From the NCBI RefSeq assembly GCF_026210795.1, contig NC_089429.1, forward strand, positions 4,340,001-4,404,000: DNA of 64,000 nt, in the 5' to 3' direction. The notes under the pieces were generated by a model that searched no databases, was not told where the DNA came from, and saw only the letters and a program-made list of their open reading frames with translations. This document shows positions 2,215-56,815 of the stretch, piece after piece. Within the stretch, counting starts at the first letter, position 1. Each line of letters opens with the position of its first letter. The stretch is from Rhizophagus irregularis. Lineage: Eukaryota. The translations under genes were made by a program, and so were the position numbers.

Positions 2215-3020
2215 TCAAATTTTAACGCAGTAGAATGCTAACGATTTTCTTATTATTATTAATTGATTTGACTTTTTAATTATGATTTATAGTTGATTTT
2301 TCAATCAAGAAATCAACGCAGTAGGACGCTAACGATTTTCTTATTATTATTAATTGATTTGTCTTTTTTAATTATGATTTATAGTTGATTTTTCAATTGA
2401 GAAATCAACGCAATAGGACGCTAACGATTTTCTTAATTTTAATTAATTGATTAGTCTTTTTTAATTATGATTTATAGTTGATTTGCCAATCGAGAAGTCA
2501 ACGCAGTAGGACGCTAATGATTTTCTTAATTTTAATTAATTGATTTGATTTTTTAAATTATGATTTATAGTTGATTTGTCAATTGAGAAGTCAATGCAGT
2601 AGGACGCTAACGATTTTCTTATTATTAATTGATTAGTCTTTTTTAATTATGATTTATAGTTGATTTGCCAATCGAGAAGTCAACGCAGTAGGACACTAAC
2701 GATTTTCTTAATTTTAATTAATTGATTTGATTTTTTAAATTATGATTTATAGTTGATTTGTCAATTAAGAAGTCAATGCAGTAGGATGCTAACGATTTTC
2801 TTATTATTAATTGATTTGTCTTTTTTAATTATGATTTATAGTTGATTTTCCAATCGAGAAGTCAACGCAGTAGGACGCTAATGATTTTCTTAATTTTAAT
2901 TAATTGATTTGATTTTTTAATTATGATTTATAGTTGATTTTCCAATCAAGAAGTCAACGCAGTAGAATGCTAACGATTTTCTTATTATTAATTGATTTGA
3001 TTTTTTAAATTTATAAATAG
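2215..3020 (+). repeat. Tandem ~90-bp micro-exon/intron-like array upstream of CACTA second gene (copy A)
   Basis: About 9 units: ttatag|ttgattttccaatcgagaagtcaacgca|gtaggacgctaac...; GT donor, CTAAC, TAG acceptor; 28-nt putative exon. Confidence 0.7.
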
Positions 3021-3081
3021 GACGATATGACGATATTGAACCTGCTTCAATTTTTTAAACGAATATTGAGTGAATATCAAA

Positions 3082-5493
3082 ATGTCAAATAATAGCAATA
3101 ATAAAAAAAAACAATAAAAAAAATAACAAACAAAAGCAACAGAGGTTTCAAGAAGAAATACCTGATGAAGTATCAAATCGTCAACGAAGAAGAATGGAAG
3201 AAGAAAGTAATCCAAATGAGACGAGTGACAAAACCAATAAATCAGCTAGCAAATCGTCACCCACCAAGTCAAACAAACAAAAGCAGCAAAGGTTTCAAGA
3301 AGAAATACCTGACAAAGGATCTAATCGTCAACAGGGAACAACAGAAGAAGAAAGTAATCTGAATGAGATGAGTGACAAAACCAATAAGTCGACTAGCAAA
3401 TCGTCACTCACCAAGTCAAACAAACAAAAGCAGTAAAGGTTTCAAGAAGAAACACTGAGCGAAGGATCTAATCATCAACGGGAAAGAATGGAAGAAGGAA
3501 GTGATCTAAATGAGACGAGTGACAAAACCAATAAGTCGACTAGCAAATCGTCACTCACCAAGTCAAACAAACAAAAGCAGCAAAGGTTTCAAGAAGAAAC
3601 ACTGAGCGAAGGATCTAAGCGTCAACTGGGAAGAACGGAAGAAGAAAGTGATCCAAATGAGACGAGTGACAAGACCAATAAGTCGACTAGCAAATCGTCA
3701 CCCATCAAGTTGATTCTCAAATCTGCAAAGTCGACTAAACTGACTCAAGAAGAGTCTGACGATAAGGTTATAGAAATTGAACCGCCAAATATTTCTAATA
3801 AAGGTAATTGAATTTTGGAAAATTGCTGATTGATATGTACGATAATTAATAATTTTTATAGATCAACAAGAGATGTTATCGGAAATGAAAAAACAATATG
3901 GGAATATTTGAATTCCACAAAAATTCGTATTAGTGGTTAAAGACGATCAAGGTAATGAAAAGGTGATCGATAACGATGATACTGATTTAGAAGCAGGTAT
4001 GATTTTGACTTCATTCGTATAAATTCAGAATTATTCGTAAAAAAATATTACTATTAATAAAATTCTTTATTTAGAAAATCTAAAATTAAAGAAACAAATT
4101 AATGAAGTACAAGTAGAGAATGCAAGGCTTTAACGCGAAAATAACTGATTATTCGACGAAAATCATTTTTTGACTTAAGTAAACGAGGCCTTTGCAGACG
4201 AGAATGACAATCTATGCAAAAGCTTAAACAGATATTCAAGAATCTGCCTGCCTAAAGCCATTCATAGGCAGATGGATCTTGAACAGCCGGCAAAATGTCA
4301 AAAAAGAATTAAGACAAAAAGTCCGAGCGATACGAGAAAGAATCAGAGGAAGAACAGTCTGGTTCTAACAATAATGATGAGTACGACGAAAAAGAAGCTA
4401 GAGTATATTAATTTTATTTGTCTAATTCAGTTATTTAAAATTGCAGTATTGAGTAATTAAGTACCGGTTATCACTATTTGATTGTTATATTTAGGCTGAA
4501 ATGAAGTCTATTTTGAAAACCATCGATGAAACTCGAAGACTAGATTACAATGAAATGTTCAATAGCGCGAAAAATCTCAAGATTCGTCATAAGCTAGTCC
4601 CTGAATTGCGTTCAGCCCTTGCTCTGTATTTTCCCGCTTCAAATAAGCAACTTCCAAAATGGTTGGGTTGTCTTCACAAGTCTCTTCGTTTTCATCAAAG
4701 ATTAATGAATAGGAGAAAAGCCGATGAAAATAAACACCGGGTGCACTCAAACAATCGAGTATACGATGTTAGTAATGATTTATAATTATTATGCTGAATT
4801 TTATTCTGATTATGTATTGAATTTTATTCAAATTATAACGTATTTTAGAAGAAAATCCGCTGAATGAAAGCGGCAAAGAGGTCATATAGATTTGACGATG
4901 AACGGATAACAAAATATGATAAGCGTAGATTACTAAAGATGTTATCCAATCGCTTATTTCATTCTCCAGAAATAAGCGAGACAGACGAAGAAGACCCAAC
5001 AAAGTCCATAATCGCTATTTACGACTATTCGTGGAAATCTGATGAGGTTAGAACTTCTGAATCTTGATTTTTCAGACAAATCGCTGGATTTAATTTTATA
5101 TTTTATTGTTTCTTCAGCTTAAAAATTTACTATGAAATGTACTCGATGTACACTCATCAAATAAGTGAAATTAATACGTGAATGTAGATACGATGATGAG
5201 ATACAAAAATATGACTGACCACATCTGTCGAATGCTCCCGAATGGTCTTATATCGTACAACAACAAGATTTAATATTCGATACTGATATTGATTAGGGTT
5301 TAATCACTGAATATGAACTGAATATGATAAAGAAGTAGAAGAAATTAGTAGAGGGACAACACCAGCAACTGGCAACACCACCGAAAATTATGAAAACCAT
5401 AACAAGAAAGAAGAAGAAAAACCATCAAAATCAACGGTCGGCGACAATCATAATAATTCAGATTCTGATTTACATATGGACGACGCGCAATGA
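3082..5493 (+). pseudogene. CACTA-element second gene (copy A), multi-exon, with 120-bp coding repeats at the N-terminus; several stops
   Basis: ORF fragments 3194-3811, 4501-4785, 4864-5067 are homologous to 20103-31590 (MKSILKTI..LVPELR..QLPKWL..LHKS; HSPEISETDEE..YDYSW); intron after YDYSWxSxE in both copies. Confidence 0.75.
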
Positions 5494-5639
5494 ACGAATC
5501 TGAATTAATTTGGTAGAAAACTTTCTTTTTTTCGTCAAAAATCTATATATATATATAATTAATATTCCAAATTATTAGTATTAGAATTTTCCATAATTCA
5601 AAATAAATTTGTCTTAATTCAGAAAAAAATTAATTACAA

Positions 5640-5900
5640 TTCGAAATAAATTTACTGCAAATTTACCGCAATTCAGAATAGAAAATTTACTGCAATTCAG
5701 ATTAAAATTTACCGCAATTCAGAATAAAATTTACCGCAATTCAGAATAAATTTACTGTAATTCAAAATAAATTTACCGCAATTCAGAATAAATTTACTGC
5801 AATTCAGATTAAAATTTACCGCAATTCAGATTAAAATTTATCACAATTTATCAAAATTTACCATAATTCAGAATAAATTCACTGCAATTCGGTAAATTTA
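5640..5900 (+). repeat. Subterminal ~21-22-bp tandem repeat (aatttaccgcaattcagaataa)
   Basis: About 10 copies before the CACTA-type terminus at 6093. Confidence 0.8.
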
Positions 5901-7053
5901 TGAATATATTTTTTTAAACAATTTGGATTAAAAATACTAAGCAATTCAGATACAATTTGGATATTCTGATCGGCGTCAATCGGTCTGCCAATCGGAACTT
6001 TGCCTAAATTAATAAATCGGCCATCTTTATTACCAAATTTGGCTTAAAATCGAACATCCGATTTCTAGCTGATTTGGACTATTTCGACCAGTACATTCTC
6101 AGAAAGATGTTCTCAGAGAGAGACCGTTGCATATATTGTAAAAAATATTCGCCATTGATCTGCAGTAAAATTTGAAAACCCATCTCCACAATTGACTTTT
6201 CCTGGGATACGACCTAAGTCAGCTGGAACTTTAAATTCATCCATTTTTTTCTGAACTGTTTTCAAAATATGTATTGTTAATACGCCATTTTTGATCTAAA
6301 GTCTTCTTACAATTCATTTTGCAATGCCCAGAAACAAGCAGTGCATCGGATCGATTGTAATGAACCGAATTGGATCGAAATATGGTAAAATCAATAATTC
6401 AGACCATCTAACTCCAGTTTGCTTTACAAATCGCTTTCTTGCTGCATCTGAATTACAGCATCTCCATCCTATAGCATCTTGACGTTGTTGAGCTGAATCA
6501 CGGCAAGTAAACTATTCGTCCATTTCATTTATCTCAGCGAAATTATGCTGCCGAGTTTCATAATTCACCTTCTTTTTGCATCTATGATATGACACCAAAG
6601 CAGAAATATGTCCGCAAATTTTTCTTGCAGCCGGTATGTCACATGAAACAAGAATCAGAGCTGCGCGAATTCTTTTCCCTTCTTGACATTTATACATTTG
6701 ATTTAATGTTACTCCTTCCTAAAGTGACTTCAACTCATCAATGATTGGCACCAGATAGTGATTAATCTTATGTAAACTTACTTTATCTGGGCTGGGTAAT
6801 AAGCCAACTAGTGCTCCGAACAGGTCAGGTCAGATCAGGTCAACTGGTTAACCCGACCTGATTTTTTTTTTCAGGTCGAATCAGGTCAGGTATAATCAGG
6901 TAAACGGGTATAACCTGATCTGACCTGTGACCTGAAAATCAAATAGGCAATTTCGATTTGCGACATTGGCATTCCTGCAGATAAATTGTGTAACAATTTC
7001 AGTTTTTTTAATTTAAAAAAAAAATTTTTAATTTCTTTTTTTTTTGTTTTAAG

Positions 7054-8131
7054 CGAAATGTTTAATCCGGATTTTGGAAGTAAGTGGAGGAAAGAGGGGA
7101 GAATAATTCATTATTTTTTTTAAGAGAAATGTTACGCTTCTCTTTCTTTATTGTAAGTTGCCAGACGAATATACAACCTGGACTTTAGAATTATGTAAGT
7201 GGATGTGGAGGATTTTTTTTTAATTATTTTTTATTTATCAAGGGAAACGTTACTAACGTTTTCTTTTTCTTTTTTATAGGTTGCCAGATGAATATTACGA
7301 CCTGGACTTTGGAATTATGTAAGTATAGGAAAGAGAAGTGGTTTATTTTTTTTTTAAAGAGAAATGTTGCTAACGTTTCTCCTTTTCTATTTTGTAGGTT
7401 GCCAGACGAATATACGACCTGGACTTTAAAATTTTGTAAGTAGATCCGTGGAGGAGAGGGAAATATTTTTTTTTTATTTTTTTTTTTAATCGAAGGAAAC
7501 GTTATTAACGTTTCTCTTTTCTTTTTAGGTTGCCGGACAAATATTATGACCCAGACTTTGGAATTATGTAAGTATAAGGAAGGAGTGTTTTTATTTTTTT
7601 TTTTTAAAGAGAAACGTTGCTAACATTTTTCTTTTTCTTTTTTGTAGGTCGCCGGATGAATATACGACCTGAACTTTAGAATTATGTAAGTGGATCTGTG
7701 GAGGAAGGGGGGAATATTTTTTTTTATTTTTTTTTATCAAGGGAAACATTACTAACGTTTCTCTTTTTCTTTTTTATAGGTTCCCGGACGAATATACAAC
7801 CCGGACTTTGGAATTATGTAAGTATAGGAAGGAGGAGTGTTTATTTATTTATTTATTTATTTATTTTTTAAAGAGAATCGTTGTTAACGTCTTTCTTTTC
7901 TTTTTGTAGGTTATCGGACGAATTTATGAACCGGAATATGTAAGAGGAGGAGTAGTGGAGAAAGGTTGAGAATATTTTTTTTTCTCGAGAAACGTTTCTA
8001 ACGTTTCTTTTTTCTTGTTTGTAGGGTTGCCGGATGAATTTACAAACTGGATCTTGGAATAGGTAAAGGATCGGAAGAGAGCTTTTTTGTATTTACTTTA
8101 AAGACTTCTCTAACATATCTTTTTTTTGTAG
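7054..8131 (+). repeat. Micro-exon/intron tandem array inside the hAT element
   Basis: About 9 units: tttgtag|gttgccagacgaatatacgacctggactttagaattat|gtaagt; mostly 38-39-nt exons; intron hairpin gaaacgtt-act-aacgtttc overlapping CTAAC. Confidence 0.85.
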
Positions 8132-8590
8132 GACTGCCGGGATATTCAGAAATCACGTTCAGGAATGCATTTATTCTATGAAGGAGAGCCCTTTCTCTAT
8201 GCGATTGGTAATACATATGGCTTTAATCTATTGAAAGATCTCGATATCGGTGCCATCATCTCTGATAAATCGTATACGGCCATGACGGAGACTTCAACAA
8301 TAAGAACAACTTCTCAGAATACAATTTGATAGACAACATCGGCTTGGATGCCGTATGTAATATTTGGCAATCCTGAATCCTAATTCGTGGAGTAGTATAC
8401 TTTAAGCAACGCATATGAATGAAGACAATGTCTTTGTGTAGGATTATTGTAAGTTTCGGAATTTTTGGTTTGAGGTCAATTACAATTTCAAAAAGTTTTC
8501 ATATATTTTATAGTAGTGATTTATTATTATATTATAATGTTATGCTTTTATTATATTATTTATATTTATACTAGAGAAAAAAATAATTTT

Positions 8591-11436
8591 TTACATATAA
8601 TCGATCCAATTTTTGATACACATGCATGCTTGAATAGATTCATTATTTAAACTAGATCGCTTTTTTGTAATTAAATCAGTACTTCTAGAGAAGATCCTTT
8701 CCACAGGAACGCTTGTACCTATATAATACAAATTTAAAATTATATAAAAATAATATAATAATTATATACATATACAATAAAAATCTAAATTACCTGGGAT
8801 TCCGAGATAGTCGCGAGCCATAATTGAAAGACGTGGATATTGTTCTTCATTATGCTATAATTTATGTTATTAAATTTATTATATGTAATTATAGCTCTAT
8901 ATTACAAAATCAAATGCAATTTACCTTCTACCATATTAATGGATTCGTTTTAGGTCCTTCAACCAACTTATTAAGATAGTCTTCTACCTCAAACTCATCA
9001 CTACTATTATTATTATTAGCTCCAAATAATTCATACAAAAAGTCATTCTCATTATTATTATTTTCGCAATTATCATTAATTATATTAGTTTTACTAGCAT
9101 AATCACTTTTAAAAGTGTTTATAAAGATTAATTTCGCGGAGTCAATAAATTTTTGTTCCCATTGTTGTTTTTTGTAATAATTTAATTTCAACCTCGGATC
9201 AAGAACTGTATATACAGTATAAAATCAGTATAAAGAAAATACGTTATATAATTATATTAAATTTGAACAAATATTAAAATTAAAATAAAAAAATTACTTG
9301 TTGCAATTGTATACAGTTGCGAATCGTCAGTCTTAGAATAGTAAAGCTTCAATTTTTCGTATCCCTTTGTTATCGCATCACGTATTTCCGGATAATGACA
9401 ATATTTCTCATGATTTTCATCCAGTAAATTCTCAATATGTTCAAGAATCATATTATACATGGGAACCGATGATGACAAAGTTATATACTTTGACATTGAC
9501 ATGTATTCAGTAGCCTTATAAAATTTCTGAAAATTGTATTCATAATTATTTATTAGAATGAAATTTTGAATAAAAATTTTAAATTAAACTTACTTCAAAA
9601 ATACGACATAATTCTTCTATAATATCCCATTCATTAGAAGAAATTAAAAATTTTTTTAAATCATGTTCAAATGCAGCAATATCATTGAGAGGCTAATAAT
9701 AAAATATTATTAATACAGTAATATTAATAAATATTTTTATTTTATCATAATATTAAAATTTACTTACATCTTTAAGTTTTAATGAGCGTTCTAGCATAAG
9801 GTACGTTGAGTTCCATCACGTACGAACGTCTGAGATGAGTTTTAATGACTTTATATTATATAAATCATACTGACGGGCAAATTTTTCACTTTGCTGTGGG
9901 GATAGATTTATTTTAAATATTAATTTTCGTAATTTTGGAATTACTTCTACACCACTTTGAGAATTTTCAGTTTCTGTAAGAATATCATTTTCTTCCTGAA
10001 CTTCACTAGCAGCCTTGATATGTCTTAAAATTTCTTGTGACGTTAGATTTATTATGTGAGCTAAACACCTGACATGATTTCTTTTATGATTGAAATTAAT
10101 TTCATTTCTACCACAAACATTTTCGAGTTCTTTTAATAGAGTTGTGTTATTTGCTGCATTATCCGCAGTTATTGCTAAAATCTATTTAAAATTTATTAAT
10201 ATAAATATTATGAAATAAAAAAATAAAAATAAAAAATATGGAAGTACAGTATTACCTTGTTAAAAATATTAAATTCATTATCAACACAACTTAAAAATGC
10301 TTTTGCCAGATTCTCCCCTGTGTGAGATCCTGATAAATGAACAAAATCAACGAGTATATCATGAAGATTCCAATTAATATCGATATAGTGGCACGTTATA
10401 CCAAGAAAAGCAACAGTATTCGTTGATGTCCAACAGTCCAAAGTAAAACTTAATTTTCCTGGAACATTCTTTAATAGATATAATAAAAAATTTAATATTA
10501 TTTATAATTATAAAATAATTTTAAAATTTACTAACTTGTAATTTATTCTTCATATTTGTTCGATAATTATTATATAAATTTAAAATATCATTGCGAACAG
10601 TATCTGCTGATGGAATTTCAACTTTTGCGTTACATAATTTTATTAATCGTTGAAATTTATCACCCTCAGTTACAGTAAAAGGCTGATCATCTGACGCTAC
10701 CCAAATTGCTAAGTTTTCACGAAAACCTGCATTACTAAATGCCTGTAAAAAGATTAATTCTATAAATAAATAATAAAAAAAAAATCATAAAATATAAATT
10801 AAATAATATATAATTATTACAATTTCTTTTTCCTTATTTTCCCCCAAAAATTTCTTCATAAATTCCGCTTGCTTTTTAACAGAAGGATCGATTTTATCCA
10901 TATGATTCTTTAAATGTTTATTTAGATTTCCTGTACTACCATTTGATTTTCCATCCATTCGAAACTTTACATTACTATTATTTATAATATTTACAATATG
11001 TATAACTATATAATTTATTAATATAAAAATTATATTTACTATAATATTAATGTTATTCTTACCTACAATATTTACATTTTGCCCATATCACACCATTTTT
11101 ATCTGTAAATTTTTCGAAGTGGTCCCATACAAAACTTCTTATTTTATTATTTAAATTTTTTTTATTTTTTTCTAATACACTATCTTCTTCAGAAACTTCA
11201 TCATCATTTTCATCGGCAATAATTTCACTTCCAGAATCTTCTGTTTCTTCATTATCTTCTGCTTCATTATCTTCTGCTTCATTATCCTCTACTTCATTAG
11301 TATTTTCTGTTTCGTTATTGATGTCTCTTTCTTTTTCAAATTCTATATCATCCTCTATTTCAATTATTCTATTATGACGAGCACGTTTTGATTTAAGAGA
11401 AATATTATTAAAATTATTTCGCTTTTGTTTATTCAT
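8591..11436 (-). pseudogene. hAT transposase, intron-rich, with BED finger and C-terminal dimerisation region; at least two nonsense codons
   Basis: VWDHF..AKCKYC, DCWTS..AFLGITCHYID, RCLAHIINL, DVRT*WNSTYLML (tca at 9816-9818), VPVERIFS..KRSSL; GT-AG introns. Confidence 0.9.
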
Positions 11437-13467
11437 TTTAAAATTTTATAAAAATATTTTGTAGAAAATGTTAGTTGAACTTTGCAAAAAATATACGAAG
11501 CTACAATAAGGGGTTAGTTTTAAATACCAATTAAAATCTGCCATGTTACATAATTATATTGCATAATGATAATCACTGATAATAAATCAACATTTCAATT
11601 AAAATAATGAGTTATAATTCAATAAAAATAGAATTATAAATAAAATATTACTATAAAATAGAAGTTTGAAGCGAAGAAATTTAATCAATATATTTCATTT
11701 GGGATTGATGATATGGTATCACATGATAAAATTAGAATTTTCTAGTATTATATTATATAACACTTGTCATACAGTTTATCCATACAAAAATTAAAGATAT
11801 GACGCATCTTTGCATGTAATAAAATTAGTAAAATTTATTCAGGTTAACAGGTCAATCAGGTCAGGTTAAAACTTTGACCCGACCTGATACTAGATCATAA
11901 ATTTAATAACCTGTGCTGAATATTTCAGGTCAACCCGATCAGGTCACCTGAAATCACCTGATCTGTTCGAAGCACTAAAGCTAACAATCAAAATATTATT
12001 GTGCTTGAATCTGACATCCTTCGAAAGGTTACCGATTGCAGCGTATATTACTCCGATGCTGTGGATTGTGCCATCGAAGGGTTGAAACCAATCTAAATTC
12101 AAAATCAATCTGAGATACGAATCAGTAACATCAGATCAGAAAAAATTATTCGAACTTTCATCTGTCGTTTCTTTAAAAGTTTTCCAAACTTCACCATCGT
12201 ATATATCAGTTAAGATATTATCGAAAGTTGGACGATTTATCCAATGCCTTAGAGAATTTTCAAAGTTAGGTTGACGATACATTGCTTTCAATTGCTGCTT
12301 AATACTCACAAACGGAAATAATAATTCAGGTTTGATTGAAATTTGGTTATTTAACAATGTTGTTTTTTGTGTCAAAGGTGTTTGGCACAACCTTAATCTT
12401 TGAGTTGTCAAATTAGGAAATTTGACATGGCAACACTTTATGATGGCAGGTTGCTCATTTTGGAGAAAACTTTTTATTTCCTGTTTGTTGTATAATTTGT
12501 GGCATTTGGAACACGCCACAAAACTATGAAACCGGTCTTCAAGATTAAGGGCTTTTTTTGCTAGATATAAAGTGTCAGGAAATGTGTCAAAATCAGGACT
12601 ACCGATTTCTGTTAGAACAAGCTTCAAGAATTTTATCAATGATTCTGTAGCTGTTTCTGGTAAGTTAAACCTGGTTCAGAAGCTCATGATCCATAATAAT
12701 ATCTATAAGAACCGATTATTTATTGATTGTTCAGTATCAGAATCTTGAAATGGTTCGAAAGGTGGACATAAATAATCTTCAAAAATTCTGTGGTATTCGT
12801 CATCATTGGATGGTTCATTATCAAATGATTTATTTCTATCATCGATATTTGCATTTTCCTCCATAGTATATTCAGAAGATTCAGAAGATTTATCATCTAC
12901 TATATCTCCTAATTCAGCAATTATAACCAGTCGAACATATTTTCTTGATCGTTGTCTATTAGGCAATTCAGCTTCCGATTCTCTCATTTGTGGTTCATCT
13001 GATATTGAGGCACTTTCGTATAGTTTGTCACTAGGCAATTCAGCTTCATCAGGTAAATGTACTTCTGTTTTTTCTGAATCATCATCCTCTAAATCTTGGT
13101 TAATTTCATGGATAGTTTTCGTATGAGGATCTACTAATCGTCTATTACATTCAGAACAATTATATACAACTAACCTTCCAATACGTGATGATGTAGAATA
13201 GAGCTCCGAATTTGACCTGATGGATCGGGTAACCCAATGGGTTGACCCAAAAAATTCAGGTCGGGTAGCAGATTTAATGACCCAACCTCAGGTCGGGTTA
13301 GTCACAATCGGGTACCTGACCCGACCCATTAACCCGACATATTTTGGTCAAAAATAAGACATTTCAGCATTTTATATATATAAAGCCAAACTGACCTGAA
13401 TCTGACATTTTTTCATTAAAAATAATTACAAAACGTCTTTTTTTATTAAAAACGTCGGGTTCAATTA

Positions 13468-13724
13468 CAGCTATTTTCTAAATTATTGACTTCCCTCCTG
13501 TTATTTTTAAAAAATTTTTCAGATACAGTCAGACGCAGTCAGACACAGTAATTCAGGCTGACTTATAGTGCCGGCCAGAATTATGAGTCATGTGGTTACA
13601 CAAATTCCAAAAAAGGAAATTTTTGAATTTGCAAAAATCACAAAAAATATCCCGAATTACTGCTGACTGTGTCTGAAAATTTTTTTAAAAATAATAGGGG
13701 GGTCAATAATTTAGAAAATAGCTG
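13468..13724. mobile_element. Tc1/mariner-type MITE nested in the hAT element
   Basis: About 60-bp TIRs (cagctattttctaaattattgac... / ...gtcaataatttagaaaatagctg) flanked by TA on both sides. Confidence 0.8.
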
Positions 13725-13729
13725 TAAAG

Positions 13730-14450
13730 AAATAAAAAAAAAATGTTTTTTTATTAAAAAACATCGAACCTGACATTTTTTATTAAAAGAAACAAAAAAA
13801 ATATTTCTTCAATTAAAAAACGTCGGGTTTGATATTTTTTCATTAAAAGAAACCAAAAAATGTTTTTTTAATTAAAAAACGTCGGGTTTGACGTTTTTTC
13901 ATTAAAAGAAACAAAAAAAATGTTTCTTTAATTAAAAAACGTCGGGTTTGATGTTTTTTCATTAAAAGAAATAAAAAAATGTTTCTTTAAATTAAAAAAT
14001 ATCGGGTTTGACATTTTTTCATTAAAAAAAACAAAAAAAATGTTTCTTTAATTAAAAAACGTTGGGTTTGACATTTTTTCATTAAAAGAAACAAAAAAAA
14101 TGTTTCTTTAATTAAAAAATGTCGGGTTTGACATTTTTTCATTAAAAGAAATAAAAAAAAAATGTTTCTTTAATTAAAAAACATTTCATTAGAAACGAAA
14201 AAATGTTTCTTTAATTAAAAAATGTTGGGATTGATGTTTTTTCATTAAAAGAAACAAAAAAAATGTTTCTTTAATTAAAAACGTCAGGTTTGACATTTTT
14301 TTATTAAAAGAAACAAAAGAAAATGTTTCTTTAATTAAAAAACATCAGGTTTGACGTTTTTTATTAAAAGAAACAAAAGAAAATGTTTCTTTAATTAAAA
14401 AATGTCAAACCTGACATTTTTCATTAGAAGAAACAAAAAAAATACGTTTT
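13730..14450 (+). repeat. ~60-bp tandem repeat, two hairpins per unit
   Basis: Unit aaaaaacgtc-gggttt-gacgtttttt plus aaagaaaca-aaaaaa-tgtttcttt, about 12 copies. Confidence 0.85.
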
Positions 14451-14655
14451 GGCGTAATAAAAAGTGCTAAAACGTACTTTTTCATAAAATAATTGTAAAA
14501 GAAACGTTTTTTTGACCTAAAATATATCAGGTCAATGGGTTGGGTTGGGTATCTGAACTGACCTGTAATATTCGAGTCAGGTCACCAAATTCATGACTTG
14601 CCTTGGGTCGGGTCAAGTCAATTATCCGACCCGACCTGACCCATTCGGAGCTCTA

Positions 14656-30087: not shown

Positions 30088-30329
30088 AGTTTAGAGCTCA
30101 GTAAAGAGGAAAGCAACTGGGAAAATATTAGTATTTAGAACGAGCACTTAGAAATTTTCGAATGAAAATTTCAAAAATAATTTTTATTGGTATTTTCAAA
30201 AATTCAGGAAAGAGTTATATTTGGTGATTATAAAGAGATGTGACTATATAAAAAATTTCTTATATTTGTATATCATAATTCCGGCCAAAAATTAACATAA
30301 TTTTAGCCGAATTATACTTAAAACTTTAT

Positions 30330-30900
30330 TGTATTGTAACTTCGCCAATATTAATTGTAGAGAGATGATCTTACCGCCATTCGATTCGTATTGATGAGAC
30401 GGTTCTAATGGTTAAAATATGTCGAAATCAAATCACTAGATTAATTTCTGAAATTAAAAAAATATTAATGGTTTTTGTGTAATAACTCTGCCAATATTGA
30501 TCCTAGAAAGACGATCTTACTACCATTCGATTCGTCTTGATGAGACGAATCTAAGGGTATAAAATACATCGAAATCCAATCACTAAATCAATTTCTGAAA
30601 TTAAAAAATATTAAATGGTTTTTAAGTAATAACTCCGTCAATATTGATCACAGAGAGATGAGCTTACCACCATTCGATTCGTCTCGATGAGGCGATTCCA
30701 ACGAGCTATAAATCGTCTTTTTACAATCACTAGGTACCGAGAAATCTAGCAAAATGTTAAATGGCACAGTAAACGTAAATCAAGAAATATTATAATGCTG
30801 ATGTTTAACATTTTGTTAAATAACTCGTCAGCCAGTGATTGTAAAAGGATAAAACTACCACCATTCGATTCGTCTCAGTGAGACGATTCTAACAAGCTAT
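30330..30900 (+). repeat. Four copies of a module centred on the palindrome ccattcgattcgtct-n5-agacgaatc
   Basis: Copies at about 30377, 30523, 30670, 30861; first three about 146 bp apart. Confidence 0.8.
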
Positions 30901-41818: not shown

Positions 41819-43149
41819 CACTGGTCGAAATCATTTCTTTCGGCATTAATACCTTTCGTCAAAGTTTGTCATCATCGTCACGTGATTCGTCACACATTTG
41901 GCTAATTACAAAATTTGGAAAAATTTTGGCATAAATCAACTGGTCGATTTTGGTCGATTTTTGGTTGAGCTGTAACATAAAAAAAACCATAAATCGACCA
42001 ATACTTCTTTTTTATCGATTTTTATTAATAACAACGATCAACTTAAAACTTTTTTGACGATTTTTAACCGATTTTTTAATTAATTTTAATTAATATCAAT
42101 AAATAATAATGACATATAAGTAAAATAAGAAAACACTGAAGTTAAAGATTCGTCAAATTTTATTGTAAATCAATTTATTCGTATTATTTATTATTAAATA
42201 ACCAATTCCATAAAATTTGTTAAACAATTATTGTAAAGAAAAATTCTGTAGCTTTTAGTAAATTACCGAATGTGAAACTTGCGATTTAATGGATTTATCG
42301 CTAAATATTCAGTTACGTTGCGGTTAGAAGAAATTTTATATTTAGCGGGCACAAATCGGCAAAGAATGTTGTGTACTGGAATAATACAATCCCTACTTTC
42401 AGGAAAAAAATCTGTTTTCCATAATTCAACATTGCATGTTTCCGTTTCTTCGGTATCATCAATACTAAAATGATACCGAATATTTGCTGTGTCTGCTGGT
42501 CGGTACTACCTAATAAAAGCCAAATAATGCTCAGTAGCACTGGTCAAAATCAATTCTATCGGGTACATATCAGGTACCTATATATCGGTGGCTAATCGGA
42601 TAAATATCAGGTATTTTTACATATCAGGTACCTGATATCTAAACTATTAGTCACTGATATGTATATCGGGTATTGATCTATCTTACACATATCAGGTATC
42701 CGATATGTAAATTTTAATACGTTAAGATTTTTATTTTGTATAACGTACTGTATTATTTATAATCCGTTTCAACTAAAATTTTTTATTTAAATTCATTTTT
42801 TAGATAACTTTTATAAATAATTTTTTAAGAAATTTTAAAAGTCCATTTGAATAATATTTAATAGGGATTTTATTTAAGAAACTTTTAGATTTTTTAGATT
42901 TTTTGAGAAATTTTTTGAGTCCGTTTGGAAAAATTATTTTTTGAGAATTTTTTAACTAAGGGGATCGTTTAGGGCATTTTTTGATAAAGAATTTTCTAAG
43001 GGTTTATTTGAGAAAATTATTTTTTGAGAATTTTTTAATTAAAGGTATCATTTGATAGAAATTTCTAAAAGTTCGTTAGGGAAATTTTTTTGTATTTTTT
43101 AATTAAGGGAATTGTTTAGGGGCTAGTGCTCCTAACAGATCGGTTCAGA

Positions 43150-45400
43150 CCTTCCTTTTTTTAAATCCTGGTCGTTCAGCTTCGTCTCATGTCCAGGTTT
43201 CCTAAAAAAAAGAAAGGAAACGTTAATTAGTACGTTCCCTTAAGTAAAAATAAAAAAAAATAAAAAAAGAAACGAACTTACCATAGTTCGTTCTTTTTTT
43301 TAAATCCTGGTCGTTCAGCTTCGCCTCACATCCAGATTTCCTAAAAAAAAGAAAGAGAACGTTAATTAGTATGTTCCCTTAAGTAAAAATAAATAAATAA
43401 AAAAAAAAAACGAACTTACCATAGTTCGTTCCTTTTTTAAATCCTGGTCATTCAGTTTCGTCTCACGTTCAGGTTTCCTAAAAAAAAGAAAGGGAACGTT
43501 AATTAGTACGTTCCCTTAAGTAAAAAATAAAAAAAATAAAAAAAAGAAATGAACTTACCATAGTTTGTTCTTTTTTTTAAATCCTGGTCGTTCAGCTTCG
43601 CCTCACGTCCAGGTTTCCTAAAAAAAAGAAAGGGAATGTTAATTAGTACGCACAGGTTGAAAAGTGAAAAATCAGGCATCAATCAGTCACCAATCGGTCA
43701 CCAATCAGGTACCTGATTGGTGACCGATTGGTGACTGATTGGCATTTTCGCCAAATACCGTCACCAATCAGGCAGTTTGCTAACTTTTGATCCAGTGATC
43801 AGAAAAAGATGAAATATAGCTCATTGGAATCGTCTCAACAAGACGAATCTAATGGTAGTAAAATCGCATTTCTAGAATTAATACTTGATGAAAAATTAAG
43901 TAAAATATAAAAATGAAAATGTATCATTTATATTTTATTTAATTTTTTATTAACTATTAATCCTAGAGATGCGATTTTACTACCATTAGATTCGTCTTGT
44001 TGAGACGATTCCAATGAGCTATATTTCATCTTTTTCTGATCACTGGATCAAAAGTTAGCAAATTGCCTGATTGGTGACGGTATTTGGCGAAAATGCCAAT
44101 CAGGCACTGATTGGTGCCTGATTTTTCACTTTTCGACCTGTGACGTTCCCTTAAGTAAAAATAAAAAAAAAACAAAAAAAAGAAACGAACTTACCATAGT
44201 TCGCTCTTTTTTTTAAATTTTGGTCGTTCAGCTTTGCCTCACGTCCAGGTTTCCTAAAAAAAAGAAAGGGAACGTTAATTAGTATGTTCCCCTTAAGTAA
44301 AAATAAAAAAAAACAAAAAAAAAAACAAACTTAATATAGTTCGTTCTTTTTTTTAAATCCTGATCGTTCAGTTTTGTCTCATGTCCAGGTTTCCTAAAAA
44401 AAATAAAGGGAACGTTAATTAGTACGTTCCCTTAAGTAAAAATAAAAAAAAACAAAAAAAAGAAACGAACTTACCATAGTTTGTTCTTTTTTTTAAATCC
44501 TGGTCGTTCAGCCTCGCCTCACGTCCAGGTTTTCTAAAAAAAAGAAAGGGAATGTTAATTAGTATGTTCCATTAAGTAAAAATAAAAAAAACAAAAAAAA
44601 AATGAACTTACCATAGTTCGTTCCTTTTTTTAAATCCTGGTCGTTTAGTTTCGTCTTACGTCCAGGTTTCCTAAACTTTTTTTTAAATCCTGGTCGTTTA
44701 GCTTTGCCTTACGTCCAGGTTTCCTAAAAAAAAGAAAGGGAACGTTAATTAGTACGTTCCCTTAAGTAAAAATAAAAAAAAACAAAAAAAAGAAATGAAC
44801 TTACCATAGTTCGTTCTTTTTTTTAAATCCTGGTCGTTCAGCTTTGCCTTACGTCCAGGTTTCCTAAAAAAAAGAAAGGGAACGTTAATTAGTACGTTCC
44901 CTTAAGTAAAAATAAAAAAAAACAAAAAAAAGAAATGAACTTACCATAGTTCGTTCTTTTTTTAAATCCTGGTCGTTCAGCTTCGCCTCACGTTCAGGTT
45001 TCCTAAAAAAAGAAAGGGAACGTTAATTAGTATGTTCCCTTAAGTAAAAATAAAAAAATAAAAAAAAAATGAACTTACCATAGTTCATTTTTTTTTAAAT
45101 CCTGGTCGTTCAGCTTCGCCTCACGTTCAGGTTTCCTTAAAAAAAAAAGAAAGGGAACGTTAATTACGTTCTCTTAAGTAAAAATAAAAAAACTTAAAAA
45201 AAAGGAACGAACTTACCATAGTTCGTTCATTTTTTTTAAATCCTGGTCATGTCGTTAGGCTTCGTTCGTCCAGGCTTCCTACTAAAAAAGAAGGGAACCA
45301 TTAATTACGTTCCCTCAAGTAAAAATAGCAAAAAAAGAAACGAACTTACCTAGTTCGTTCTTTTAAATCTTGGTCGTCCGGCTTCGTCCGTTCGTCCAGG
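43150..45400 (-). repeat. ~140-bp micro-exon/intron tandem array
   Basis: About 13 units; on minus strand ttttttag|gaaacctggacgtgaggcgaagctgaacgaccaggattt(a)ngaacgaactatg|gtaagt; hairpins over donor and branch point. Confidence 0.88.
43651..44142. mobile_element. Foldback CACTA-type MITE inserted in the array
   Basis: Ends cacaggttgaaaagtgaaaaatcaggca / tgcctgatttttcacttttcgacctgtg; 3-bp TSD acg/acg; nearly palindromic throughout. Confidence 0.93.
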
Positions 45401-45498
45401 AAAAGGTTTTTTAAAAAAAAATTTTTTTTTTATTTAAAAAAAAATTTGATCCGAATCTGTTCAGATTGGATCAGATTTTCTTGTATTATAGGGCATTT

Positions 45499-45560
45499 CA
45501 CTGGTCGAAATTTATACTATCGGGTATTTAGTATATCAGTATATTTGATTGGCCGATCTA
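45499..45560. mobile_element. Left terminus of another CACTG-type element; matching right end not identified
   Basis: cactggtcgaaatttatactatcgggta, related to the TIR at 42538. Confidence 0.65.
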
Positions 45561-45572
45561 CACATCTTTTTT

Positions 45573-47060
45573 TTTGTAGATTCCGGGTAAGTCCTAAAAG
45601 AAAGGCCAAAAAAAAGTGAAAGTCCTAAAAAGACAAAAAAAATGACCAAGAAAAAAAGAAGACAGTGTCTTAAAAAAAGTGAAGACCGAAAGAAAGAAAA
45701 GACCGAAATGAAAGACCAAAAAAAAGAAGGAGAAGTCCTAAAAAGAAAGACCGAAAAAAATGTAAAAAGTGTCTCTAAAAATTTTGTTTTTTTATGTAAG
45801 AACGTTCATTAAAGTTCTTTTACTGCTTTTTTTTTGTAGATTTCGGCCGGAACTTGGAAATGGAAATCGGTGAGTATTTTTAAAAAAAGGAAGCAAGTTT
45901 TTTCTTTAGTTTTTCATATGTAAGAACGTTTATTAACATTCTTTTACTTTCCCTTTTTGTAGATTTCGGCCTGTGAACTTGAAATTATGATCAGTAAGTG
46001 TTTTTAAAGAGGAAAGCAGGAGGTTTTTTTTATGTAAAAACGTTTATTAACGTTCTTTACTTCTTTTTTTTGTAGATTTTAACCTGCAATTCAGAAATGG
46101 GGACCGGTGGGTATTTGGAGAAGTAGGAGGTTTTTTTTTGTTTTTTATGTAAGAACGTTTATTAACGTTCTTTTATTTTTTTTTTGTAAATTTCGGTCCA
46201 GAACTCAGAAATGGAGACCGTTGGTAAGTATTTTTAAAGGGAGAAAGGGGATTTTTAAATTTTTCTTCATGTAAGAATGTATATTAATGTTCTTTTATTT
46301 CTATTTTTTTGTAGATTTCGGCCCAGAACTCAGAAATGGAGACCGGTAAATATTTTTAAAAAGGGAAGTGGGGTTTTTTATTTTATTTATGTAAGAACGT
46401 TTATTAACGTTCTTTTATTTCTATTTTTTTGTAGATTTCGGCCCGGAACTCAGAAATGGAGACTGGTGAGTATTTTTAAAAAAAGGAAGTGGGGTTTTTT
46501 ATTTTATTTATGTAAGAACGTTTATTAACGTTCTTTTACTTCTTTTTTTTGTAGATTTTAGCCTGCAACTCGGAAATGGAGACCAGTGAGTATTTGGAAA
46601 AGTAGGGGTTTTTTGTTTTCTTTATGTAAGAACGTTTATTAACGTTCCTTTACTTCTTTTATTGTAGATTTTAGCCTGGAACTTGAAAATGGAGACCGGT
46701 GAGTATTTCTAAATGTTTTTTTATATTTCTTCATATAAGAACATTTATTAACGTTCTTTTACTACCTTTTTTTGTAGATTTTAGCCCGGAACTCGGAAAT
46801 GGTGACCAGTGGTGAGTATTTTTAAAGGGAGAAAGCAGATTTTTTTAATTTTTCTTTATGTAAGAACGTTTATTAACGTTCCTTTACTTCTTTTTTTTGT
46901 AGATTTTAGCCCAGAACTTGGAAATGGAGACCGGTGAGTATTTCTAAAAAAGGAAGTTGTTTTTTTATATTTCTTCATGTAAGGATGTTAATAATGTTTC
47001 TTTTTTTTATCATTTTTATTAGGGACATGGATTCTTGGATAATAATACAAACTGTAAGTT
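45573..47060 (+). repeat. ~120-bp micro-exon/intron tandem array
   Basis: About 11 units: ttttgtag|atttcggcccggaactcagaaatggagaccg|gtgagt; mostly 30-34-nt exons; intron hairpin aagaacgtt-tatt-aacgttctt. Confidence 0.88.
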
Positions 47061-47158
47061 GAGTGGATGAAGGAGATTCTAAATTAATATTTATTATTGT
47101 GATATTTCAAAAAATCAGTGATTTAACTTATTGACTGGTATATGCATGATAGATTACC

Positions 47159-47679: not shown

Positions 47680-47724
47680 AGATTACCGATAGGTACCCGA
47701 TATGTGACTAATTGGTATATTTAA

Positions 47725-48338: not shown

Positions 48339-49229
48339 TATATTTAAGTAGGGTTTTGTATTATTTAAAGCAATAAAGAGTTTAACTTGCAGTGTAATTC
48401 TAGTATAAATAGTATAAATGCATTTTATAAATTATAATAACCCGGATTGATATGTTTGGGTTAAAATCTATGGCCCAATCAGAATTTGTTGTTGTAATCA
48501 AGCGATTGATCACATGATTTCGGTATTTATATTTCGCATTTTGTTTATTTTTTTTTTTCCTTTCGTAAAAACCTTTCTCTTAAACTTTTTATTTAAAACA
48601 AACTCTTTACTTGGTTATTATAAAATAATAATATTATTATATTTTTTTATTTATTTTTATATTAGAAATAAACATAAAGGTATATTTTCATTATGCTTGT
48701 TTTTTTCTTTTATATATACATTTTCTATTGACGTTCTAATACTTTTTTTCTTTTCTCTCACTAATGTTTTTTACCACTTATTAACATTTTCTATTAATAT
48801 TAAATACTACTAACATGTTTTTATTAACATTCTCGTATTAATATTTTCTATTTTACTAACTTTTCTTTCTTTCTACTAACATTTTTACTAACATTTTCTA
48901 TATTTACCACTAACGTTTTTATTAACATTTCTATTTTTATTTCTCTTATTAATTAATATACTTACTAATATTTTCACTAATATTTCTTTTAAATGTTAAA
49001 CAGATAATTTTATTATCATTGCTACTTTCAGTAGAACTTTACATATTACATAGTATAATTATTTATTTTTAATGTTTAACTTTATTTGATTTTACGTATG
49101 TAGTAGATAGAGTAAGACTTGTATTATTGTTTAAATTTTAATAAAGTTGAATTTCATTTTATCTGAATTAAAATAAAAAAAAGAGATATATATCTATTAG
49201 TTTTAATATGAAATTTATAGCTACTAACT

Positions 49230-50234: not shown

Positions 50235-50278
<44 letters not shown>
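50235..50278 (+). repeat. (AAT)n microsatellite within an intron of transposase C
   Basis: About 14 AAT units between cctaag (minus-strand acceptor) and cttacc (minus-strand donor). Confidence 0.9.
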
Positions 50279-50279
<1 letters not shown>

Positions 50280-52070: not shown

Positions 52071-53360
52071 TAGAGGGCGATCAAAATTATCCGGCCACTT
52101 TGTTTTGGCAAATTTATGCCAATTATGACGTAATAACATGATGTAATCAATACATTATTTTGTATTTATAATCATGATAAACATACCCCTTAACTTCATA
52201 TTTTCTAGAACTTTCTAAAAATATGAAGCCACTTACCCCAAAAACGCGTGGCGCAATTGTTTATGGACATAATTGTGGACAATCAAGTCGTACAATTGCT
52301 AAACAGTTGGGATGTGGGAAAACAACTGTTAATGATATACTTAAGCGCTTTCATGAAACACACTCCTTAACACCAAAAAAACAAACTGGTCGTCCACCCC
52401 TTCTTAATTCACCAGCTCAGCAAAAGCTTAAAGAATTTGTTCAAGAAAATGGTGAAAACCACCGACTTTGCACGAAAAAGCTTGCTACAGTATGAACAGC
52501 ACGTACAGAACAACCTGTTTCTGCTATTACTATACGTCGTAACCTTAAGAAAGTTGGGCTAACAGCTTGTATACCTCGTAAAAAACCTGCACTGTCGAAA
52601 GCACATTGTCAGGCTCGTCTTGAATGGGCCCATGTGCATGAAAATTGGAGTGCAAGAAAATGGAGACGTGTGCTTTTTTCTGATGAAAGCACTTTTACAC
52701 AGTTTCAACAAGGACGTCAGGAAAAGGTATGGCGTGAACCTGGGGAAGAATTAAATCCTGACTGTATTTCAGTTACTGTAAAGCATAGTCCTAGCAAAAT
52801 GTTTTTGGGGTGTTTGACTTGGACTAATTGTTCCATTAAATGGTTCAGTTACTGGTCAAACACACACTATAACCATTAAGGATTATGTTGTACCTACTTT
52901 ACAAAGACATTTTCCACAAGGTAATGGGATTTTCCAAGAAGATAATGCCCCACCACATCGTTCAAAGGTTGCTACGGCTGCACGCAAAAATGCTGGAATT
53001 GTGGTGCTTGATTGGCCTGCCCAAAGTCCTGATCTCAATCCAATTGAAAACTTTTGGGCAGAAATGAAAATGATGGTTTGCCGTCGTACACCACCACCAT
53101 CTAATATTAAAGTGCTTGAAAAATATGTTAAAGATGCGATATTCCTCCTGAATATTATAAAAAATTGGTTAATAGTATGCTTAAGAGAATTGAGGCAGTT
53201 ATTGCTGCAAATGGCAATAGAATTAATTATTAATTTTTACATAATTTAATAAATTAAATCATAAATAAAAACATTGATTTTAAATTTTTATTTTTTTTTC
53301 ATATTTTTATATAAAAATTTTTTATTTTTAAAGTGGCCAGATAATTTTGATCACCCTCTG
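52071..53360 (+). mobile_element. Tc1-type DNA transposon
   Basis: 30-bp TIR tagagggcgatcaaaattatccggccactt / aagtggccagataattttgatcaccctctg, TA flanks. Confidence 0.93.
52223..53233 (+). pseudogene. Tc1 DDE transposase with a stop and frameshifts
   Basis: HTH (SSRTIAKQLGCGKTTV), GRPP, VLFSDES, FQEDNAPPH, WPAQSPDLNPIENFW. Confidence 0.93.
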
Positions 53361-53679
53361 TATATGCTTATATATACATATATATATATCTATTAACTAA
53401 TACTTTACGATAAGCCCCTCCTCTGTAAACAGGTAGAGGCCATAAAGTAACTATAGAGGGAGAGCTATTGCTGCTCCTTCCGCCTGTTTATAGTGACAAA
53501 AAGAGGGAGTCTTCAGTAGTAAAGTTTAGTACTAAATTAAATATCACAACACATCGTATTGATACATTGTTTATATTAACAATATGATTTAATGTTAAAT
53601 AATTCATTTAGAATATAAATATTATAAATTTAATAATGTTCGTAATTTACAAATAAATAAAAATAAAAATTAACAATTT

Positions 53680-54603
53680 TAATGTAATTAAGTGTAATGC
53701 TACGTTATCCAGTGTAATTGTAGTATTTTTTGTGTGTTTTTTAGCGCAATTCCGCGTTTTTTAGTGCAATTCCGCATTTTTTAGTGCAATTCCACATTTT
53801 CTAGCATAATGTTACATTTTCCAGTATAACACGAAATTTTCTAAAAAATATAATAATTGTGGTACTTTTTAGTGTAATGCTACATTGTCTAGTGTAATTG
53901 TGGTATTTTTTAGTGCAATGCCGCATAATTTAGTAAAATGCTACATTTTTTAGTATAATTTAATGTAATGTGGAATTTTCCAAAAAATGTGATAATTGTG
54001 ATGCTTTTTAGTGTAATTTGGTGAAATGCTACATTTTCCAGTGTAATGCCATATTATTGAGCATTTTCAAAAAAAAATGTAACATTTTAACATTCTGACG
54101 AAAGTGAAACATTTGACCAAAAAAACATAAAATTTGCTGAAAATATGCAACATTTGACAAAAAATATAAAATTTTCATAAAAAAATGCACCATTTTCTAG
54201 GAAATCGGAATATTTGACAAAATTTGATTTTAATTGACAATGTTATAACAATTTTATGAAATGTTGTTACAATGATATCACATTGGAGATAAAATGTGGC
54301 ATTTTCATAAAAATGCACCATTTGCAAGAAAATTGGAACATTTGACAAAAAAAAAGTAAAATTTGATTTAATTGACAATGTTATAATAATATTATGAAAT
54401 GTTACATTTGAGATATAATGTAGCATTTTCCCAAATTTTCATAAAATTTATAAAATTTGCTAAATTGGACAATGTTGTAACAATGCTATTCCAAAAAATT
54501 GCTCAGTGTAATGCAACATTTTTCACAATTTCCCACCATTTTCCAGGAAAATGGGGAATTTGCATTTTTTGAATTTTGGACAATGGTGCCCCTTCGACCT
54601 GTG
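53680..54603. mobile_element. Right part of a CACAG-type non-autonomous element with short internal repeats
   Basis: Terminus ttcgacctgtg at 54593-54603; agtgtaatg/aattgtg repeats; left boundary approximate. Confidence 0.6.
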
Positions 54604-56815
54604 TTACTGAATTGTCAAATCCAAGGAGACCAAAAAAACCATATAATAAGGTAAAAAAAGAATTGTTAGAAGCTGTTCGTGAAGATAAAAAAAATAAAAG
54701 AATGAAAAAACATACCAAAATGTCGCATCTAGGATGATGTTTTAATAGATAGTAAGCATTAGTATACTTTGGAAGGTTCACTTCCTACAAAATAATGAAA
54801 TGTTAATACATTTCTTCAAAGTAAACTTTAAAAGAACTGACCTCCACACACTTACCCTGTATCCCAAAAACTACAGAAAGCTGAAATCTAAGAAAAAAAT
54901 TAAAAATTAATTCATTTTTTTTAAAAAAAAATAAAGTTTTGAAGTGTGTTCGAAATGAATTTACTTATCCAAAGTCTAAGAACCGAAGCTAAAACCTACC
55001 AAATAAAAGAAAATAATTAATTAAATAAAAAAAATTTTTGAAAAAAAAGACTCAGAGCTTTCACTTCGAAACTCACCTATCAAAGCCCAAGAACTGAAGT
55101 TGATATCTACAAAACAAAAAAAAATCAATATATAATTTTTTAAAAAAAAATTTTTTAAAAAAAAGAATTTCGAAGTGTTCACTTCGAAACTCACCTATCA
55201 GAACCCATGAACTGACGCTAATACCTACAAATAAACAAAAAAAAAGTTTATTAAAAAAAATATATATTAAATAATAAAAGTTTTGAAGCTTTCACTTCAA
55301 AATTTACCCATCCAAAGTCTATAATCTGAAACCCGAGACCTACAAAATAAAAGAAAAAAAAATTAATTAAAAAAAAACAAATATTTTTAAAAAAAAGCCT
55401 CAAAGCTTTTAGTTTCGAAACTCACCCATTAAAAGTCCATGAACCAAAACCCGAAACCTAAAAATAGAAGAAAAAAATTAAAAAAGATTATTTTAAAAGG
55501 TTTTGAAGCAAAAGCGAAGCTTCAAAACTTACCTAACAAAGCCCAAGAATCAGAAAACGAAACCTATAAAATAAAAAAAAACAAATTAATAAAATTAAAA
55601 AAAAAATTATTTTAAAAGTTTTGAAGCAAAAGCAAAACTTCGAAATTCACCTAACAAAGACCAAGTATCAGAAGCTGAAACCTACAAAATAAAAAAAATT
55701 AATAAATTAAAAAAAAATAACTTTAAAAAAGTTTCAAAGCGAAAGCAAAGCTTCGAAACTCACCTAATAAAAACCAAGTATCAGAAACCGAAACCTACAA
55801 AGTAAAAAAAAAGAAAGTTATTAAAAGTTTAAAACTTTTTTTTAAAAAAAAAAATTTCAAAGCAAAACGCTTCGAAACTCACCTAGAAACCTACAAAATA
55901 AAAAAAAGAAAATTATATAAAAGTTTAAAAAAACTTTTTTAAAAAAAAGTTTCGAAGCATTTGCTTCAAAACTCACTTGACAAAGCCCAAAAATCGGAAG
56001 CCGAAACTTACAAAATAAGAAAAAAAATTTCAAAACTTACCAAATTGAAGCCAATATCAAAATAGAAGAAAAAAAATTAATAAAAAAAAATAATAGTTTC
56101 GAAACGAAACTTTGAAAAAAATAAAAATAAAAAAATAAAAATAATTTTTTTATAGTTTCGCAACGAAACTTTGAAAAGAAAAAAAAAAATTTTTTAAAGT
56201 TTTGTTGTGAAACTTTAAAAGAGTTTTAAATAAAAAATAATAATTTAAAAAATTAAAATAAAAATAATTTTTTTATAGTTTCGCAATGAAACTTTAAAAA
56301 GAAAAAAATTTTTTTTTGAAGTTTCATTGTGAAACTTCAAAAGAGTTTCAAATAATTTAAAAAATTAAAATAAAAATAATTTTTTAAATAAAAAATAATA
56401 ATTTAAAAAATTAAAATAAAAATAATTTTTTAAATAAAAAATAATAATTTAAAAAATTAAAATAAAAATAATTTTTTTATAGTTTCACAATAAAACTTTG
56501 AAGAAAAAAAAAAAATTTTTTAAAGTTTCGTTATGAAACTTCAAAAGAGTTTTAAATAAAAAAAAATAATTTAAAAAATAAAATAAAAAATATTTTTTTT
56601 ATAGTTTCGCAACAAAACTTTGAAAAGAAAAAAAAAAGTTTAAAATTAATTTAAGTTAAAGATTATCTTATCTGTTATATACATGATAATCATTCAGAAA
56701 TAATATTCGTAAAGATTATCATATGTCAAAATTTTGGTCAAAACTTTGTACAGCCGAACTTTAGCCAAAACTTAGCCGAAAGTCACGTGACCAAAAGTTT
56801 TGATTTCGACTAGTG
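54604..56815. mobile_element. Right part of a CACTA element containing the array
   Basis: Terminus caaaagttttgatttcgactagtg at 56815; palindromic gtttcgcaacgaaac repeats at 56095-56640. Confidence 0.7.
54786..56070 (-). repeat. ~115-bp micro-exon/intron tandem array
   Basis: About 12 units; plus strand shows ctcac/cttac (donor), a ~30-nt exon, then ctac/ctat plus A-tract (acceptor); hairpin agtttcgaagc..gcttcgaaact at the donor. Confidence 0.8.

Follow-up and report, generated by a model that had tools for sequence, protein, structure and literature searches.

Why would the ends of DNA transposons carry tandem runs of tiny putative exons, each with its own short intron-like sequence? The question is raised by a stretch of 64,000 nucleotides (nt) from Rhizophagus irregularis (assembly GCF_026210795.1, contig NC_089429.1, positions 4,340,001 to 4,404,000 of the forward strand), which we call the window and which is AT-rich and packed with nested transposons. 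A first-pass annotation had proposed five such micro-exon/intron arrays, with unrelated sequences but one common grammar, inside hAT- or CACTA-type elements. We find the arrays to be a real, widespread and selected feature in which known ingredients are newly joined.

Anatomy and conservation of the arrays

All five arrays are present at the positions and on the strands proposed. Their unit consists, in this order, of a branch-like motif, a T-tract, AG, a block of 28-60 nt (the putative exon) and a GT donor. That is, the marks of a U2-type intron (GT donor, branch motif, pyrimidine tract, YAG) follow each other in order on one strand, weakly so in array 1. The introns of the window arrays are mostly 59-94 nt long, and in arrays 2-5 the branch-like motif lies about 18-32 nt before the AG, followed by a long T-tract and combined with near-consensus donors. 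Among the sites examined, one GT/AG site per array is broken.

Array 1 (2215..3020, plus strand) has 8 full internal blocks of 28 nt in units of 89-93 bp, and its last acceptor at 3020 is 61 nt ahead of an ATG at 3082. It is the weak member of the set, with a GTAGGA donor, a weak or missing polypyrimidine tract, no hairpin and no excess conservation. Array 2 (7054..8131, plus strand) comprises a first block, 8 internal blocks (38/39/38/39/38/38/30/38 nt) and 9 introns with a branch hairpin. It starts 245 bp inside the left terminal inverted repeat (TIR) of a hAT element and reads inward, antisense to the minus-strand transposase. Array 3 (43150..45410, minus strand) consists of 13 blocks of mostly 57-62 nt (about 59), one of them doubled, again with a branch hairpin. 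Array 4 (45573..47060, plus strand), also with a branch hairpin, has a 7-nt first block, 10 blocks of 30-34 nt and a 31-nt last block, and reads inward from a CACTA-type TIR at 45499. Array 5 (54786..56070, minus strand) reads inward from a CACTA-type TIR at 56815 and has about 12 blocks of 30-32 nt with a donor-side hairpin; one block is cut to 8 nt with both splice sites intact. The hairpins claimed for four arrays are thus found over the branch point (arrays 2-4) or at the donor (array 5), and some introns of arrays 2 and 4 fold nearly end to end. A lone acceptor-block-donor unit in T-rich DNA at the start of the window (53-86, plus strand) may be the tail of a sixth array.

As proposed, the block lengths mostly break the reading frame. 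When joined in silico, the blocks of every array carry 4-23 stops per frame in all three frames, and an ordinary repeat-protein gene is therefore rejected. Frame-preserving exons that form one open reading frame, i.e., the make-up of a micro-exon protein gene, are found neither in the window arrays nor in the metagenome loci described below. A protein search with the unspliced frame of array 4 gave no spliced-type product from unannotated sources. Of the proteins resembling this frame, P0101 and P0102 look like its unspliced relatives, and the one exon-exon join in P0104 belongs to an NCBI model and is thus a prediction. The intron cassette probably accounts for some spurious repeat-protein gene models of this kind.

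Next, we compared the conservation of the splice letters with that of their surroundings. In a border-anchored alignment, GT/AG letters are changed in 5/184 cells compared to 106/736 exon-edge cells, where the anchoring itself favours this result. Using blind MAFFT alignments, GT/AG letters are changed in 10/184 cells, compared to 133/1356 exon cells when CpG columns are left out (p=0.03) and to 490/2766 intron cells (p=1e-6). The earlier statement that splice signals are kept hence holds for the pooled arrays against both introns and exons, while against exons individually it holds for array 5 only. The window alone provides a modest conservation signal.

We turn to related arrays in metagenome contigs. 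The search pattern combined branch motif, T-tract and AG without requiring a donor; it has 10 matches in the window and none in 100 shuffles. Among the matches listed, to which all following metagenome figures refer, at least 127 stretches in metagenome contigs fit the pattern; 121 loci were analysed (117 non-redundant) and flanks were retrieved for 80. Low GC and a DNA likeness of 66-88% to window repeats suggest that the contigs are of fungal origin. Viral contigs gave 7 single pattern matches and no array, which we take as background.

Although no donor was asked for, a strong donor follows 6-75 nt behind 81/170 distinct acceptors, compared to a mean of 22 and a maximum of 32 in 300 shuffles and to 3 on the reverse strand. 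GTAAGT makes up 50/81 of these strong donors. The remaining 89/170 acceptors include many with a weaker GT donor on visual inspection, as well as some that match by chance in bacterial DNA. Chaining of units yields at least two in 75/117 loci, at least three in 48/117 and none in 42/117, with arrays of up to about 16 units. AG follows 272/276 chained branch cores, and a donor from a looser list (no chance level computed) is found in 177/188 intervals. The respective exons have a median length of 37 nt and fall into all three length classes modulo 3 (54/54/69 of 177), while the median intron length of 81 nt is partly set by the chaining rule.

Exon sequences show no comparable constraint. At 70% identity, 81 exons form 55 families, and in five arrays (loci L008, L019, L055, L063 and L066) the exon likeness within the array (0.25-0.34) is like that of random pairs (0.28). 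Splice letters are thus more conserved than their neighbours, and exons drift in related arrays. Given these sequence patterns, selection appears to act on the intron while the exon drifts freely in sequence and length. Overall, we consider it very probable that the arrays are selected intron units.

A probable common intron family and its hairpin

The first-pass annotation had called the five arrays unrelated in sequence. This is right for the exons, while the introns of arrays 2-4 share one motif. Their branch regions are alike (z 2.2-4.2) via a palindromic motif, which forms the hairpin over the branch point; this motif has 25 matches in the window, of which 23 are within arrays 2-4. Common exon ancestry between arrays is unsupported, the best pair (arrays 4-5) reaching z=2.0 among 20 comparisons.

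The donor-side hairpin of array 5 is linked to the others by two metagenome loci. In L020 and L022, the branch hairpin and an array 5-type donor hairpin occur within the same intron (z -3.1 to -3.9 for three hand-picked introns), and therefore arrays 2-5 are best seen as one intron family, not as independent inventions. The earlier reading of one architecture in two superfamilies is accordingly kept in part: the architecture does recur in hAT and CACTA elements, but a shared family seems more fitting than convergence.

Hairpin covariation across families, suggested earlier as a check, is seen in the outer stem. Three stem pairs outside the searched core covary between A-T and G-C in 71, 61 and 56 of 80 representatives, compared to 41, 35 and 44 of 80 expected from 2000 shuffles; stem pairs 4-6 show no signal. 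Since relatives share ancestry, the 80 representatives are not independent events. The shared stem is only about 8 bp long.

We also asked whether the introns resemble known RNA or mobile introns. Rfam has no match in the window and none in 10 metagenome loci at E 0.05, i.e., no known small RNA family of the kind expected for an intronic host gene of small nucleolar RNAs (snoRNAs) or microRNAs is found in them. With regard to dispersed near-identical introns, as known for introners, 23/25 motif matches of the window are within the arrays, and no such intron is seen inserted into one of its coding genes. The palindromic core of the arrays recurs in a 147-bp tandem repeat (30337-30900) upstream of a long interspersed nuclear element (LINE), in a miniature inverted-repeat transposable element (MITE; 43651-44142) and in locus L057.

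Position, proposed role and competing explanations

An array and a Pfam-supported hAT transposase share one contig in 7 loci. Upstream of the transposase and in sense are the arrays of L016, L045 and L051 (the latter with a 643-aa open frame), while those of L012, L013, L078 and L080 are antisense at its 3' end; L012 holds both, i.e., a 3' antisense array and a worn sense array upstream. Arrays face inward at either end wherever their contig also holds a transposase or TIR. The two hAT-type TIRs of L069 enclose hardly anything except its array. A TIR and an array are also present in L022, a small element of CACTA type, whose comparison with array 4 shows fast exon turnover within one TIR family. 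The array of L042 has about five units and precedes, on the same strand, an open Tet_JBP frame of 447 codons (571-1911, minus strand; Tet_JBP match E 3.4e-8, just under the Pfam cut-off). For Basidiomycota and Pezizomycetes, transposon-borne TET/JBP genes are reported in the available text of PMC12730594, which is silent on Glomeromycota. Instead of the free-standing RNA genes first imagined, an array can serve as the sense leader of a transposase or cargo gene or lie antisense to such a gene. Beside the TIR of L080, several donor-like motifs stand in a row, facing outward.

In the window, a position inside a hAT or CACTA element is firm for array 2 only, given both TIRs and an 8-bp target duplication. 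Arrays 3-5 have one TIR each: a hAT-type TIR (43124..43138, plus strand) directly behind the last unit of array 3, a CACTA-type TIR (45499..45510, plus strand) 75 bp before array 4 and another (56804..56815, minus strand) upstream of array 5. For array 1, the right-end TIR of a CACTA-type element that would hold the array and its gene (6082..6093, minus strand) lies 3 kb downstream, and the left end was not found. With regard to CACTA features, the hosts of arrays 1, 4 and 5 show one TIR each, and Transposase_21 belongs to an adjoining element. Array 3 seems to fill a hAT-type element that has lost internal sequence and whose second end would be cut at 45499.

What could such arrays do? Our preferred answer, to which we give somewhat less than an even chance, is that they are spliceosome landing strips at transposon ends, which shield the element's RNA from silencing or tune its exposure. 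A promoter in the terminus would fire through the array, each unit would be bound by U1/U2 and branch-point factors, and excision would be slowed or tuned by the hairpin lying over the branch point or donor. The element RNA would then resemble a normal intron-rich host transcript, blunting silencing, and the loaded RNA could escape or dampen RNA interference (RNAi) and DNA methylation. At one end of the element, the array would serve transposase or cargo genes as a leader, and at the other it would give antisense RNA. Unequal exchange or gap repair would add units, and capture would carry whole cassettes from element to element. As far as the available parts of PMC8647823 report, R. irregularis has 24-nt small RNAs derived from transposable elements (TEs) and CG methylation of TEs, and the host thus has the matching pressure for shielding. 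Elsewhere, introns are described to hinder nuclear RNAi in C. elegans (passages of PMC5554785) and to counter HUSH even without splicing (passages of PMC8770142). A bolder version, i.e., a portable anti-silencing cassette made of introns only, tuned by hairpins, multiplied in tandem, exchanged between hAT and CACTA elements and disguising the transcripts of element and cargo (including the TET/JBP dioxygenase) as intron-rich self, seems doubtful to us.

RNA data were mapped to 2000-8700, the region of arrays 1 and 2, at 82% likeness. Of the four runs, two are poly(A) runs, the third is of uncertain kind and the fourth is a contig set (X7) guessed to be RNA; repeats inside array 2 were skipped, the libraries look unstranded, and 84-97% of the mapped raw reads run into other loci. 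In the poly(A) runs, array 2 has a thin coverage of about 3-22 per bin, while the depth over array 1 is about 0-2. Unspliced RNA-type sequence on array 2 exists.

A number of observations count against selected, spliced and shielding introns. Poly(A) reads cover the intron positions of array 2 up to 28-fold, and two X7 contigs run through four predicted introns, agreeing with 7124-7580 and 7960-8250 at every base and without a gap. A predicted GT-AG junction is found in 0 of the 15 joints listed (21 in total), where no ordinary intron was detected as a control either. Within the window, the GT/AG excess over exons is weak (pooled p=0.03, significant alone for array 5 only). An ATG occurs in 92/177 metagenome exons, which therefore fit a translated leader poorly. 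The hairpin core has no G-U preference (26 G:T vs. 31 A:C in 291 units), such that RNA hairpin and DNA palindrome are not told apart. No more than 14 metagenome loci show their TE context in the form of a transposase or TIR, most contigs being too short. Finally, the cited intron protection comes from animals, and in the fungus Cryptococcus poorly spliced TE introns and stalled splicing provoke RNAi, according to the available text of PMC6232588.

This precedent leads to the opposite role, in which the arrays form a self-limiting module. Here, the spliceosome would be held up by hairpins over branch point and donor, and transcription running inward from the two ends would yield double-stranded RNA and from it small interfering RNAs (siRNAs), which restrain the element and, via captured fragments, host genes. 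The unspliced RNA on array 2, hairpins that mask splice signals, the convergent orientation in four loci and in the window, and a captured host fragment behind array 2 are in line with this, as is Cryptococcus (PMC6232588, as far as available). We nevertheless think it quite unlikely: the signals are near consensus and not weak (GTAAGT in 50/81 strong donors), and unstranded libraries do not separate retained introns from antisense read-through. Slightly better placed, though still unlikely in our view, is neutral amplification. That is, a leader intron and its exon would be duplicated by slippage in TE-subterminal DNA, intron number would bring no benefit, and splice signals would be kept only because a broken intron spoils the transcript. 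The window indeed has many other subterminal tandem repeats without splice grammar as well as a hAT transposase without a 5' array, and exons turn over rapidly within one TIR family (array 4 compared to L022). Neutral growth leaves unexplained, however, why arrays lie antisense at the 3' end, why some non-autonomous elements consist almost wholly of an array (array 3, L069, L022) and why the covarying hairpin persists in 80 representatives.

Two further explanations remain. If CpG-centred palindromes bound a transposase or host factor at the DNA level, the splice grammar would be a relic; inward orientation at both ends as in subterminal repeats, near-perfect Watson-Crick pairing with few G-T pairs and the lack of a spliced read among the joints listed would follow. 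Such motifs do not require the fixed order (branch motif 21-33 nt before AG, T-tract, AG, donor), which far exceeds shuffles and is found on one strand only, nor its presence in two unrelated transposase superfamilies with subterminal repeats of their own, which makes this account improbable. Even less credible is that the excised intron or its hairpin is the product, as in a snoRNA or mirtron-like host gene, or that the intron is mobile like an introner. Conserved introns between drifting exons and the nearly end-to-end folds of some array 2 and 4 introns would suit a product, as opposed to the missing Rfam matches (window; 10 loci at E 0.05) and a shared stem of about 8 bp. A mobile intron is at odds with introns that are in tandem with their exons and of which no insertion was seen in the coding genes of the window.

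Known systems and surrounding elements

Subterminal repeats of hAT and CACTA elements are tandem, lie beside the TIR, are inverted at the two ends, vary in number and are kept in non-autonomous copies. The arrays are likewise tandem, TIR-adjacent and inward at both ends, but their units are 90-140 bp long with full splice grammar, one intron family occurs in two superfamilies, and the GC-richer core drifts while the intron signals stay. Schistosome micro-exon genes have runs of very short exons that preserve the frame and are coding; array exons are also very short but fall into all three phases, with stops in all frames. Pack-type DNA transposons capture host gene fragments. The element of array 2 similarly holds a host fragment behind an inward terminal transcript, but here a leader with many introns is attached to the fragment.

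Intron gain by tandem genomic duplication, as described in passages of PMC4974935 and PMC3443670, also multiplies introns by local duplication. The cases described there are single events in host genes, while the arrays reach about 16 units in non-coding TE ends of many genomes. The introner-like elements and sister stwintrons of Hypoxylaceae (PMC8469720, available parts) are related, structured fungal spliceosomal introns as well. They are, however, dispersed at new gene positions and bear terminal inverted repeats of 45-55 nt, whereas the array introns are tandem, are carried together with their exon by a DNA transposon and form short hairpins in their interior. HUSH intron protection (PMC8770142), RNAi barriers (PMC5554785) and the stalled-spliceosome RNAi of Cryptococcus (PMC6232588) equally tie introns of invader RNA to silencing; these are host mechanisms of other lineages, and a transposon-borne intron array appears in none of the passages available.

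No description of such arrays was found in the literature searched, which included few subscription papers and no supplements. The passages available from R. irregularis TE and genome papers do not mention them, and curated TE libraries in supplements may hold the sequences. Repeats make up about half of this genome, and two-thirds of its TEs lack a classification (PMC11075540, in part); a recurring intron cassette offers a handle on part of the unclassified fraction. The arrays are a case of mass intron multiplication inside transposons. If they are spliced or bound by the spliceosome, they would serve as a natural experiment: families and unit numbers are many, and comparing them in RNA, small-RNA and methylome data that already exist could tell whether mobile DNA is shielded or exposed by introns.

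The element that holds array 2 (6809..11977) is a complete hAT element, inserted within a CACTA transposase gene. It has short TIRs at both ends, an 8-bp target duplication (1 mismatch) and an intron-containing hAT transposase gene (8600..11445, minus strand) without an array at its 5' end in the window copy. Pfam gives no match on the single exons of this transposase, which is 31-35% alike to that of L051 (E 1.6e-21). The captured fragment (8156..8320, plus strand) lies inside the last exon behind array 2 and is an internal piece of a MYND-finger/DUF4470-type host gene (85% to P0097, residues about 536-594); it could give small RNAs against its host gene. Behind array 1 follows a decayed multi-exon gene (3082..5460, plus strand) with 147-bp coding repeats, which belongs to a Mucoromycota hypothetical protein family. 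The CACTA-type MITE of 492 bp (43651..44142) has a 3-bp target duplication and sits in the branch hairpin of one array 3 intron.

Further elements of the window include a hAT-type element (13198-14655) full of a 60-bp tandem repeat, partly inverted and without splice grammar, in contrast to the arrays. The LINE-type element (22497-30090, minus strand) encodes an RRM-containing ORF1 (708 codons) and a 1952-codon frame with endonuclease, reverse transcriptase and RNase H. Near a CACTA-type element end, an intron-like stretch (48680-48995, plus strand) is crowded with repeated branch-point-like motifs, and a Tc1/mariner-type element (52071-53360) has its TIRs and a broken DDE_3 transposase. Finally, an intronless gene (61545-62351, minus strand) encodes a cysteine-containing, predicted secreted protein of no named family, which is conserved in Glomeromycota, Mortierellaceae and Mucorales (98% to an R. 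irregularis protein, 74-82% to the next relatives).

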